Positions 6,997 through 9,577 of a stretch of 64,000 nt of DNA are shown here, in pieces; position 1 is the first letter of the stretch; every line of letters begins with the position of its first letter. The notes below the pieces were generated by a model. That model saw only the letters and a program-made list of their open reading frames with translations. It was not told the origin of the DNA and did not search any database. This DNA is from an uncultured Actinomycetes bacterium (GTDB taxonomy: Bacteria; Actinomycetota; Thermoleophilia; Gaiellales; JAICJC01), in assembly GCA_963703275.1 (NCBI GenBank), contig OY969804.1, positions 3,692,392 to 3,756,391 of the forward strand, read 5' to 3'. Made by a program: the position numbers and the translations under genes.

Positions 6997-7015
6997 ATCC
7001 TGCCTAGGGCAGGAT
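6997..7015. terminator. short hairpin ATCCTGCC-TAG-GGCAGGAT between convergent genes
   Basis: 8-bp perfect stem read directly. It overlaps the rph stop codon. No U-tract. Confidence 0.25.
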
Positions 7016-9532
7016 CTCGACGTACCCGTCCGTTCCATGCACCCGGATCCGCCGCCCGTCCTGGATCAGCTGGGTGGCGCGCTCGACCCCCACGACGGCC
7101 GGCAGGCCGTACTCCCGGGCGATCACCGCGCCATGGGTCATCAGGCCCCCCACCTCCGTCACCAGGCCGGTGATCGCGACGAACAGCGGCGTCCAGCTGG
7201 GGTCGGTGTAGGCGGTGACCAGGATGTCACCCGGTTCGAGATCGGCCTTCGCCATGTCCAGGATCACGCGGGCTCGCCCCTCGACCGTCCCGGCGGAGAC
7301 CGGCAGGCCGACGAGCGCGCCGGCCGGCACGCCTTCGCGCCGGTAGGCCCCCGCCATGATCTCGCCATCCGATGTGAGCACCCGGGGCGGCGTGAGCGCC
7401 TGATACGACCGGAACGCCTCCTTGCGCCCGCGGATGAGCTCGGCATCCACCTGGCCGGTGCGCACGACGTCCCGGAGTTCCTGGAAGCTGAGGTAGAAGA
7501 TGTCCTCGGGCTCACGAAGCACGTGGGCCTGCACCATCCGCTCGGCCTCTCCCAGGAGTGCCTGCTTGTACACGAAGTAGCGGCTGACCATGCCGTACTT
7601 CGGATACTCCCGGTATCCGATGAAGGTCCGGACGCGGTCGATCATCCGCTTCACCTCTTCGGCCTTGGCCTCCCCGTCCGGCAGGGCCCGCAGGGCCTCG
7701 ACCAACTCCTGTTCCTTCTTCCAGGCCTCCTGCCGGCCCTGCTCGAAGCGGCGCTCGCCCGCGCCGGGCTCGAAGTTCTTGATGTTGCCGAGGATCAGGG
7801 GCACGAGCGTGGTGGGACGTTCGCTCCACCGCGGCCGCGTGATGTCGATCTCACCGACGCAGCGCATGCCGTACCTGTCGAGGTAGGCCAGGATTGCGTC
7901 CCGCCCCTCCCGCCCACCCGCGAGCTTGGGCAACTCGTCCAGGAAGTCGTCGTCCTCGACCTGCTGCAGGAAGGCCACGACGTCCGGATGCGGGCGGATC
8001 ACGTCCGCGACATCCAGGAGCGCCAGTCCCATCTCCGACGTGACGTTGTGCGGGACGGACTGGGTGAGCGTATCTGCCGCGTTTGTCTCGCCCAGCCACG
8101 TCTGCAGGTGCTCGTTCAGCCACCACGTGGCCTCCATCGCCGACATGAACACCCGGTGGCTTTGCGGATCGAACAGGATCCGCTTCAGCTCATGGATGTC
8201 CTCCAGGATGAAGTCGAGCAGCGCCGGGCCCGACTTCGACCGGATGCCGCATTTCAGAGCTGCGATGGATTCCTGGTTGCGCGTGATCAGGTCGGTGACG
8301 ATGGCTGGATCGGTCTCGATCGGGGCCTGGGCGGCGCGCGCGGGCGGTGGCCCGGCGGGCTCCTCGTCCGGGAGTGATGGAAGGAAGCCGCTGCGATCGA
8401 CGATCGACCGCAGCGCGTCCCCGGACAGCGGGTCAGCCCTCCCAAACGCCTCCACCAGCCGGGCGCGGCTCGCCGGCGATGCGAGGTCGTGCGTGACGTC
8501 GACGAACAGCCTCCCGCCGGCGTGGTGCATCGGCCGGCCGGCGGTGAGCTGCCACATCGAGATCCCAAGCGGCTTCATGGGGTCGGTCATCATCTGCTGG
8601 TGGCCGACCGAGAGGTACACGTGGTTCTCGGCGTCGCCGGCCGCGGGGATCGGGAACAGCGTGGTGATGGGCCGGCTCTGGACAATCTGGAATCCGTCGT
8701 CGGCCAGGCACCATTCGATGTCCTGAGGGCGGCCGAAATGCGCTTCGATCCGCCGGCCGAGCTGCGCGAGTTGCACCACCTGCGCATCCGTCAGCGCCGG
8801 CTGCGCGGCGGCGATCGTCCGCTCGGCGACCTCGCCGTCGCGGACCGTGTAGATGTCCGGGTTCACCAGGCCCGAGACCAGGTCCTCGCTGAGGCCGAAG
8901 CCGGCCTCGATGGAGGCGACCTTCCGGTTGGAGGTGATGGGGTCGGCCGTGAACAGGATGCCGGCGGCCTGTGGGAAGACCATCTGCTGCACGACCACGG
9001 CCATCTGCACCCTGCGGTGGTCGATGCCGTTCCGCAGGCGGTAGGTCACGGCCCGCTCGGTGAAGAGCGAGCCCCAGCACCGGCTCACGGCCTGGAGGAT
9101 CGCCGCCCGCCCCACGACGTTCAGGTACGTGTCCTGCTGTCCCGCGAAGGAGGCCGTCGGCAGGTCCTCCGCCGTCGCGCTCGATCGGACGGCGTAGGGG
9201 GCGTGCTCGCCGAGCCCGGCGAGCGCGCGGGTGATCGCCGCCGCCACATCGTCGGGGATGGCGATTCCCTCGATGGCGCGGCGGATCTCCGCGCTGAGCG
9301 CGCCGATCGCCTCCCGGTCGTTGGGCCGCAGGAGCGACAGGCGGTCGAGCCGATCGCCGATCGACGGCGCGCCCGCCATGATCCGCCCGAAGGCGTCGGT
9401 CGTCACGCAGAAGCCGGCGGGCACGCGGACGCCTTCGATCCTCGACAGCTCGCCAAGGTTGGCAGCCTTGCCGCCGACGACGGCGACCTGCGTCCGGTCG
9501 ATCTCCTCGAAACCCAACACGTAGCGGCTCAT
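7004..9532 (-). CDS. rph: rifampin phosphotransferase-type PEP-utilising enzyme (annotated elsewhere as phosphoenolpyruvate synthase-like)
   Basis: 842 aa from the internal ATG ([11 protein letters not shown]). N-terminal ATP-grasp ([11 protein letters not shown]). The protein ends with the swivel His domain [21 protein letters not shown] and has no C-terminal TIM barrel. An RAE-like repeat lies upstream. Confidence 0.8.
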   Translation of the reverse strand: [842 protein letters not shown]

Positions 9533-9558
9533 GCGCTCGTGATTATGCGGCACGACAG

Positions 9559-9577
9559 GGTGCTTGCCGCAAGCCCC
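9559..9577 (-). promoter_or_regulatory. RAE-like 19-bp inverted repeat (coding-strand GGGGCTTGCGGCAAGCACC)
   Basis: 8 of 9 arm positions pair around a central base. The repeat lies 27..45 nt upstream of the rph ATG. Confidence 0.6.

Follow-up and report, generated by a model that had tools for sequence, protein, structure and literature searches.

The question raised by the locus described here is whether an uncultured Actinomycetes bacterium carries a rifamycin-resistance gene which the drug itself would switch on. The DNA, which we call the window, is a stretch of 64,000 nucleotides (nt) of contig OY969804.1 (GenBank assembly GCA_963703275.1, positions 3,692,392 to 3,756,391 of the forward strand). 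The gene is rph, predicted to encode a rifamycin phosphotransferase, in front of which lies a 19-bp inverted repeat resembling the rifamycin-associated element (RAE). The RAE is said to have been described by Spanogiannopoulos and colleagues in 2014, and rph was reportedly discovered through the RAE in front of it. The RAE of Actinobacteria has also been treated by Surette et al. 2022 and Hurst-Hess et al. 2022; it is required for induction in Streptomyces and Mycobacterium abscessus. Taken as a whole, the locus is best explained by an rph gene expressed from an RAE-type promoter, a reading to which we give a probability of about 0.7. That the locus is an RAE-type rph unit appears very probable; that this particular copy is inducible by rifamycins, an argument by analogy, is slightly favoured. 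The pairing of RAE and rph is already known, and what the locus adds is the atypical half-architecture of this copy, together with the symmetric layout and the palindrome swaps seen in the loci compared with it.

The Enzyme

The mechanical open reading frame (ORF) at this locus, 7004..9883, has 959 aa, and the initial annotation had considered it composite, with an 842-aa protein beginning at the ATG at 9532. Both statements stand. Translation from this ATG runs to a TAG stop codon (7006-7004, minus strand), and the mechanical ORF is composite because its 117 extra codons, for which no protein-family match was found, run through the palindrome into out-of-frame ABC-ATPase remnants. Exact-sequence look-ups with the 842-aa and 959-aa products returned no match.

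The domain order had been announced as that of RPH rather than that of PpsA, the phosphoenolpyruvate (PEP) synthase, and the domain scan gave exactly what was expected: the Pfam domains of the 842-aa protein are PPDK_N (residues 17-292) and PEP-utilizers (766-836), and PEP-utilizers_C, the PEP/pyruvate TIM barrel, is not found. The C-terminal swivel histidine motif is present as well, with His800 encoded at 7133-7135. Family models agree, since the NCBIfam equivalog NF041857 (RIF_Ptrans_rph, "rifamycin-inactivating phosphotransferase") is matched with 1523.9 bits for a cut-off of 999, while the PEP synthase model TIGR01418 (355.1 bits, cut-off 739.75) and PRK06464 (373.5 bits, cut-off 598) remain below threshold. 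The Streptomyces RPH to which the RAE led also falls under NF041857 and has an allele-level model of its own, NF000283; the window enzyme scores 1233 against it, under the cut-off of 1700, and is therefore not that allele. The structures 5FBS, 5FBT and 5FBU of the Listeria monocytogenes rifampin phosphotransferase (RPH-Lm) align over the full length (E=0), the central 470 residues matching the rifampin-binding domain of 5FBS, and for the product encoded on a sister contig (see below) the precomputed Pfam annotation lists Rph_4th. Judged from its sequence, the window gene is a rifamycin phosphotransferase gene.

The residues on which catalysis depends are known from work on RPH-Lm (PMC4844700), where Lys22, Arg117 and Thr136 act on ATP and phosphate transfer to the drug involves Arg666 and Glu667. 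The drug phosphate is held in a network of hydrogen bonds that includes Lys670 and is contacted by Gln337; Val368 is implicated in rifampin binding, and His825 carries the phosphate. All the catalytic or mutagenesis residues have their counterpart in the window enzyme, namely K22, R116, T135, R641, E642 and H800 (Lys22, Arg117, Thr136, Arg666, Glu667 and His825 of RPH-Lm). The rifampin-contact residues Q312/Q313, V344, T498 and K645 (Gln336/337, Val368, Thr523 and Lys670) are kept, and so is E273 (Glu297). The columns of Arg641, Glu642 and Lys645 are invariant among 10 homologues. The sole aromatic swap among the catalytic and rifampin-contact residues replaces Tyr351 of RPH-Lm by Trp327, and a Tyr351Phe mutant of RPH-Lm is fully active (PMC4844700).

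Four near-identical ENA metagenome contigs from independent assemblies, reached via the neighbouring response regulator, up to 3.79 Mb long and 99.4-99.9% identical to the window, are called sister contigs in what follows. On these contigs also, gene callers overextend rph, for example to 874 aa (L085:12454-15078), and such calls bury the palindrome and the -10 hexamer within annotated coding sequence. The rph call on L084, another sister assembly, is as short as 747 aa and points to an indel there.

The RAE-Like Palindrome

The initial annotation had placed a 19-bp inverted repeat 27-45 nt before the ATG and taken it to differ from the RAE at one position. This description proved accurate: GGGGCTTGCGGCAAGCACC spans 9577-9559 of the coding strand and precedes the A of the rph ATG by 27-45 nt, oriented towards the gene and inside the roughly 500 bp allowed for an RAE; its dyad centre is at 9568, about -32 from the predicted start of transcription. 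It shares 18 of 19 bases with the published 19-mers GGG[G/C]CTTGCGGCAAG[G/C]CCC, used as RAE queries in bioRxiv 10.1101/2025.08.06.668190, the sole mismatch being C>A at position 17, and an exact-match search as in that work would miss the window element. In our comparison with the published RAE, for which the consensus was taken from later papers quoting the original definition, the element fits save at this position and lies at the same fixed distance of 11 nt from a -10-like hexamer.

Within the window, GGGGCTTGCGGCAAGCACC is the only site with at most three mismatches to GGGGCTTGCGGCAAGCCCC, where shuffled sequences lead one to expect 0.04, and no other site fits the looser pattern GGNNCTTGNNNCAAGNNCC. 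Surette et al. accepted as RAEs those nhmmer hits that covered at least 15 bp and scored at least 10 bits. Our own 19-mer nhmmer model, trained on 45 RAEs upstream of other rph genes, gives the palindrome 16.2 bits over 18 positions (E=0.0011 for 64 kb), the next best site reaching 7.0 bits, so that scored with this 45-locus model the element lies above thresholds like theirs. With a 36-nt model that combines palindrome, spacer and hexamer, the coding strand reaches 29.4 bits (E=6e-8) and the opposite strand 16.5 bits. RAE orientation can be read from positions 4/16 and from the difference between the two hexamer types described below; the central G was also considered as a mark of orientation towards the gene and was rejected, this position being C in 16 of the 45 loci. 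The palindrome was considered, too, as a terminator of the upstream ORF, and this was rejected for want of a T-run and for a fold no better than that of shuffled sequences (-5.9 kcal/mol, z=-0.84).

Promoter Anatomy

The features of the locus are collected in Table 1. Downstream of the palindrome the conserved 11-nt spacer CTGTCGTGCCG leads to the hexamer CATAAT, with a G at 9548 corresponding to position -13, and a further 9 nt (CACGAGCGC) separate this hexamer from the rph ATG. Two loci of Mycobacterium smegmatis guided the interpretation: the arr oligonucleotides reconstruct as GGGGCTTGCGGCAAGGCCC followed by 11 nt and CACAAT, and at helD, according to a review, a promoter mapped by experiment has its -35 region overlapped by the RAE and a conserved G just upstream of its -10 element. 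A mapped P1 start is reported at helD about 20 bp upstream of the RAE. Because of this geometry we read 9547-9542 as a -10 element and infer a transcription start at about 9535.

Table 1. Coordinates of the rph gene, its predicted active-site codons and its promoter elements in the window.
Feature	Position	Strand	Basis or remark
rph coding sequence, 842 aa + stop	7004..9532	minus	Translation, Pfam, NCBIfam NF041857, 5FBS alignment
His800 codon, predicted phosphate-carrying histidine (His825 in RPH-Lm)	7133..7135	minus	5FBS alignment, PMC4844700
Arg641-Glu642 and Lys645 codons (RPH-Lm Arg666, Glu667, Lys670), predicted phosphate transfer to drug	7598..7612	minus	5FBS alignment, PMC4844700
Start codon ATG	9530..9532	minus	First residue aligned with that of the Listeria enzyme and of close homologues
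Upstream part of 959-aa mechanical ORF, outside the gene	9533..9883	minus	No Pfam match
-10-like hexamer CATAAT	9542..9547	minus	Exactly 11 nt after the palindrome, as in reference loci
11-nt spacer CTGTCGTGCCG, palindrome to hexamer	9548..9558	minus	Matches conserved spacer profile (G27, C29, G30 of 36-nt model)
RAE-like 19-bp palindrome GGGGCTTGCGGCAAGCACC	9559..9577	minus	1 mismatch to published 19-mers; nhmmer models
Left-hand hexamer relic CACGTT, 9 nt from palindrome	9587..9592	plus	Canonical TAnnnT at 11 nt in other loci

No Shine-Dalgarno sequence precedes the rph ATG. Since in addition at most 4 nt would lie between the start of transcription and the ATG, the rph mRNA is probably leaderless or nearly so. 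Leaderless mRNAs are common in Actinobacteria. Short gaps between hexamer and start codon are also seen in front of other RAE-driven genes, 6 nt for the rph of metagenome contig L106 and 7-9 nt in L091, L136 and L137. Promoter and start are identical in the four sister contigs, and for this reason the promoter state is real for this species; these contigs do not count as independent lineages. A simple scan of 9300-9900 for sigma-70 consensus promoters found none on either strand, which says little because its rule of a 16-18-nt spacer excludes the arrangement TTGCGG-19 nt-CATAAT. In the same simple scan no convergent promoter pair of the Bacillus subtilis type was found, the hexamers flanking RAEs facing outwards.

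Layout of RAE Loci in Other Genomes

To place this promoter among its relatives, two independent samples were available: 80 genomic loci reached via the Rph protein (sample 1, L001-L080), and 80 metagenome loci reached solely via the DNA pattern GGGGCTTGCGGCAAGNCCC (sample 2, L089-L168), of which the 71 unique loci with complete flanks served for the spacing counts. An RAE-like palindrome lies upstream of rph in 52 of the 80 loci of sample 1, and in every one of these 52 a gene-side nAnnnT hexamer stands exactly 11 nt from the palindrome, as it does in 67/71 loci of sample 2. The other side mirrors this arrangement, with an outward-facing TAnnnT on the opposite strand exactly 11 nt from the other palindrome edge (52/52 in sample 1); in sample 2 an outward-facing left hexamer occurs at 11 nt in 68/71 loci and has the form TAnnnT in 61/71. 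The gene-side hexamers are of the type CA[G/T/C]AAT and the far-side ones of the type TAnnnT. Other spacings from 5 to 18 nt mostly occur in 0-2 loci of sample 2, the exceptions being 13 and 14 nt on the gene side (8 and 9 loci) and 17 nt on the left (35 loci), which we attribute to phasing within the conserved flanks. As a sequence pattern, the pair of hexamers is solid. The literature searched contained no account of such a symmetric layout; a review of 2022 mentions two promoters, both in sense orientation.

The genes on the gene side are the known RAE-controlled set. In sample 2 they comprise FAD (flavin adenine dinucleotide) monooxygenases closest to rifampin monooxygenase (22), HelR (11), Rgt-like glycosyltransferases (7), Rph (5) and Arr (5). 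Representatives of HelR (1285.7 bits, cut-off 750) and Arr (198.5 bits, cut-off 130) are confirmed by NCBIfam, and for the representative monooxygenase and glycosyltransferase the models rif_monoox and Rgt are among the top two matches, below cut-off. On the far side the ORFs of sample 2 form no clusters, so that no conserved protein gene is found there and the outward-facing hexamer serves none. The putative leftward transcript opens instead with a conserved GTGG..GGAG box, which is the 5' arm of a hairpin in most loci. A stem search in each sequence gave a median of 10 paired positions versus 7 in a shuffled control, a modest enrichment, and a T-rich tail follows the hairpin in about one third of the loci. 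RNAalifold, applied to the leftward transcripts, found no consensus structure, and the loop lengths vary. We hold with moderate confidence that a leftward transcript with a hairpin and a T-rich tail is predicted by these sequences.

Several palindrome classes, CTTGCGGCAAG, CTTGCTGCAAG, CTTGTTTCAAG and CTCATGAG, share one scaffold and occupy the same position in it. CTTGCTGCAAG comes from genomes labelled Acidimicrobiia, CTTGTTTCAAG from Solirubrobacterales and Conexibacter. CTCATGAG is found about 70-100 nt before the start in eight rph loci (L025, L039, L045, L046, L066, L068, L070 and L074), including metagenome-assembled genomes (MAGs) of Solirubrobacterales, Streptosporangium fragile and a Nocardia sp. 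Hexamers of the CATAAT/CATACT and TAAATT/TAAGTT types lie 20 nt from its dyad on either side, and this palindrome may be a second class of rifamycin-associated element.

Three side observations came from the same survey. In many Actinomycetes (loci L005, L013, L016, L023, L024, L056 and L073) a long conserved "leader" lies between the RAE and rph (e.g., L024:2744-2860). In tblastn it corresponds to the first ~40 codons of an rgt-like glycosyltransferase gene (51-69% identity), so rph stands there behind an RAE promoter and a truncated rgt remnant. An RNA switch, which we had considered for this leader, is ruled out by the coding match, and no Rfam family was found in it. Secondly, an RAE of canonical geometry at L091:3568-3586 drives a gene for a 213-aa P-loop kinase, whose sole NCBIfam match is the chloramphenicol phosphotransferase CPT (66 bits, well below cut-off); this kinase is a candidate for a further RAE-controlled function. 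Lastly, RAE-like elements are present upstream of rph in MAGs labelled as non-actinobacterial, L014 (Thermoanaerobaculia), which has complete canonical flanks, and L061 (Longimicrobium). These could reflect either horizontal transfer or binning contamination.

Proposed Mechanism

The model which we favour for the window combines these elements as follows. RNA polymerase carrying the housekeeping sigma factor would start at about 9535 from CATAAT (9547-9542), with the G at -13. A -35 hexamer is absent, and its region is taken up by the 19-bp palindrome, whose centre lies at about -32. Ribosomes would read the resulting mRNA, in which 0-4 nt precede the ATG, as a leaderless message. If Streptomyces and M. 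abscessus are a guide, the palindrome would make transcription rifamycin-responsive, and the most likely route to induction is a putative dimeric DNA-binding factor replacing the -35 contact. A dimeric factor is favoured because the palindromes are swapped between lineages while the scaffold stays; the same variation speaks against a -35 element read by the housekeeping sigma factor, since the element of a conserved sigma factor should not vary so.

The chemistry of the enzyme would follow the Listeria model. The ATP-grasp domain is expected to bind ATP, His800 on the swivel domain to take the beta-phosphate, and the swivel domain to swing to the central rifamycin-binding domain, where Arg641, Glu642 and Lys645 would assist phosphate transfer onto the C21 hydroxyl of rifamycin, the expected products being 21-phospho-rifamycin, AMP and Pi. 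Once phosphorylated, the drug would no longer bind RNA polymerase.

Evidence Against This Reading and Alternative Explanations

Several observations weigh against an intact and inducible unit. At position 17, where the window has A, the 45 canonical rph-linked RAEs have C in 43 cases and A in one; genomes labelled Acidimicrobiia, with their variant elements, usually have A at this position. No RAE precedes the genes of the nearest homologues of the protein (81-82% identity, L001-L004). To the left of the palindrome, at 11 nt, the window reads CGTTGT where the 52 other loci have TAnnnT, its left flank contains no hairpin (z=+0.84), the left hairpin box being gone, and the 5' untranslated region (UTR) is absent from this copy. 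The enzyme itself is a short form: its ATP-grasp domain is smaller by about 23 residues, the missing stretch being RPH-Lm 248-270 (window ~8780-8800, residues ~243-246), one of two similar beta-hairpin-like stretches. As for the postulated factor, no RAE-binding protein has been reported since 2014 in the literature searched, and the word "regulator" is absent from the text of a 2026 Tn-seq (transposon sequencing) study of rifamycin resistance.

The alternative which survives best concerns the induction step only and dispenses with a factor. The palindrome would be the shared core of two back-to-back competing promoters, and rifamycin would shift the balance to the resistance gene; we consider this possible and put it forward tentatively. 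The RAE would then be not a free-standing operator but the dyad centre of a conserved promoter pair on which rifamycin sensing depends, a view that we hold with similar reserve. In such a pair the leftward member may be near-consensus and yield no more than a short hairpin RNA, the resistance-gene promoter may be weaker, and the window may represent a natural "half" version without the partner promoter. The survey is in keeping with this in that an outward-facing -10-like hexamer stands at exactly 11 nt on either side of the palindrome, the left one being the better match (TAnnnT in 61/71 loci), with no conserved protein gene to the left and with a predicted left transcript that opens with a hairpin, often followed by a T-rich tail. 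Sensing by promoter pairs has precedents in B. subtilis helD/pps, to whose convergent promoters the model is loosely analogous, and in M. smegmatis rpoB, and it would agree with the fact that no regulator was found. Against it stands the consideration that a polymerase blocked by rifamycin at the left, stronger promoter would be expected to obstruct the right-hand one, not to free it. The lineage-specific swaps of the palindrome, moreover, fit a co-evolving protein better than a conserved sigma factor, and the window, deprived of its partner promoter, would not be inducible under this model.

A second alternative accepts a working rph but takes the element for a relic, with a constitutive or weak promoter whose rifamycin response was lost through decay of the left half; we judge it unlikely. 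Among RAE-bearing rph loci, only the window and the four sister contigs are without the left TAnnnT at 11 nt. Their left flank aligns to the canonical CCGCCAC-TTCCAACGTATAGCGCACC minus 2-3 nt, so that, from sequence comparison, the left half looks like the canonical layout with 2-3 nt lost. A strict scan for the full symmetric scaffold, run on the loci and the window, returned 153 matches in 145 sequences, none of them in the window. The rare A at position 17 and the rearrangement between strains of the DNA just upstream point the same way. On the other hand, the gene-side half is canonical in palindrome, spacer, hexamer and G at -13, as its 29.4 bits reflect, and the need of the left half for induction is something that this explanation assumes. 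The identity of the element in four assemblies also speaks for its maintenance, with little weight since they represent one species. Because the left half is absent, inducibility of the RAE-type promoter is plausible and not assured, and this applies whether induction proceeds through a factor or without one.

Decay of the whole locus, with a short-form enzyme as inactive as the broken genes beside rph, is very improbable. It would account for the ~23 residues missing relative to the Listeria enzyme and most homologues, for the frameshifted ABC-transporter fragments directly upstream and for the 747-aa gene call in one sister assembly. Yet the frame is intact over 842 codons with all key residues present. 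The same short form is found in Lentzea alba (L062), Catenulispora rubra (L043) and metagenome contig L106. As this form recurs, twice behind perfect RAEs (L062 and L106), the deletion is probably tolerated. Finally, a PEP synthase or other PEP-utiliser-type kinase with a different substrate, preceded by a chance repeat or by the terminator of the upstream gene, is largely refuted, for although legacy NCBIfam models so named (PRK06241 group) also score high and the depositors of the Listeria enzyme in the Protein Data Bank (PDB) gave it that name, PEP-utilizers_C is missing, TIGR01418 stays at 355 against 739.75, the rifampin-contact and transfer residues are kept, and the palindrome has neither a T-run nor a stable fold (z=-0.84), with 0.04 sites expected by chance and E=6e-8 for the 36-nt model.

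Genomic Context and Significance

Downstream of rph, and converging on it, lies a gene for a pyridoxal-phosphate (PLP) enzyme of Cys/Met metabolism (5923-6984, plus strand). On the other side the region 9720-11896 varies between strains, with 2177 nt in the window versus 839 nt in the four sister contigs. The 839 nt hold an intact PAP2 gene and a 126-aa ORF; the 2177 nt hold fragments of MacB_PCD, FtsX and ABC_tran in three frames, interleaved colinearly with pieces of the 126-aa ORF. This mosaic could be a true strain variant or rearrangement, or an artefact of assembly or polishing. Comparison of the window flanks with the 80 rph loci of sample 1 showed no synteny. The window has a G+C content of 70%, and no Rfam family, no rRNA and no other RNA marker was found in it. 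Its genes would suit a member of the Actinomycetota, although they are not diagnostic of that phylum. At 37393-39553 cbbX (462.5 bits, cut-off 459.25) lies beside a gene for phosphoribulokinase (344 bits, cut-off 236), with further ORFs at 35708-37636, which suggests a Calvin-cycle gene cluster and hence a CO2-fixing host.

The locus adds one predicted environmental rifamycin-inactivating gene, in an uncultured high-G+C bacterium with two Calvin-cycle-associated genes, and it illustrates how gene callers can hide a regulatory element in an overextended coding sequence. Sensing through the RAE matters for M. abscessus, where RAE-controlled arr and helR make rifamycins useless. The survey offers three testable features: outward-facing -10 hexamers at a fixed distance, palindromes exchangeable within one scaffold and a natural one-sided variant. 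The symmetric layout and the palindrome swaps make the function of the RAE more directly testable. If the promoter pair were indeed the sensor, the window would be a ready-made test of whether the partner promoter is necessary.

Comparison with Known Systems

Like PpsA (pyruvate, water dikinase), the window enzyme has an ATP-grasp N-terminus and a swivel histidine domain; PpsA has a C-terminal PEP/pyruvate TIM barrel where the window enzyme has a 470-residue rifamycin-binding domain instead. With RPH-Lm (5FBS/5FBT/5FBU, 5HV1) it shares the order of the three domains and the key residues at equivalent positions, and it differs in being ~23 residues shorter in the ATP-grasp domain and in having Trp for Tyr351.

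The window element, like the published RAE, is a 19-bp palindrome that precedes a predicted rifamycin-inactivating gene on the same strand, but the published 19-mers have C at position 17 where the window has A. In the window copy there is no left-hand TAnnnT at 11 nt, no left hairpin box and no 5' UTR.

A known parallel to a promoter pair is the two-promoter rifampicin alarm of B. subtilis helD/pps (Sudzinova et al., NAR 2026, PMC12802891), whose authors treat the RAE as a separate, unexplained system. This alarm also involves a rifampicin-modifying PEP-synthase-like enzyme and a HelD-type protein, and, like the RAE loci, it has a closely placed promoter pair without known regulator. The arrangement differs, since the B. 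subtilis promoters are convergent and lack an RAE, whereas at RAE loci the hexamers stand back to back around the palindrome; and where B. subtilis has the pair, the window has the gene-side hexamer only.

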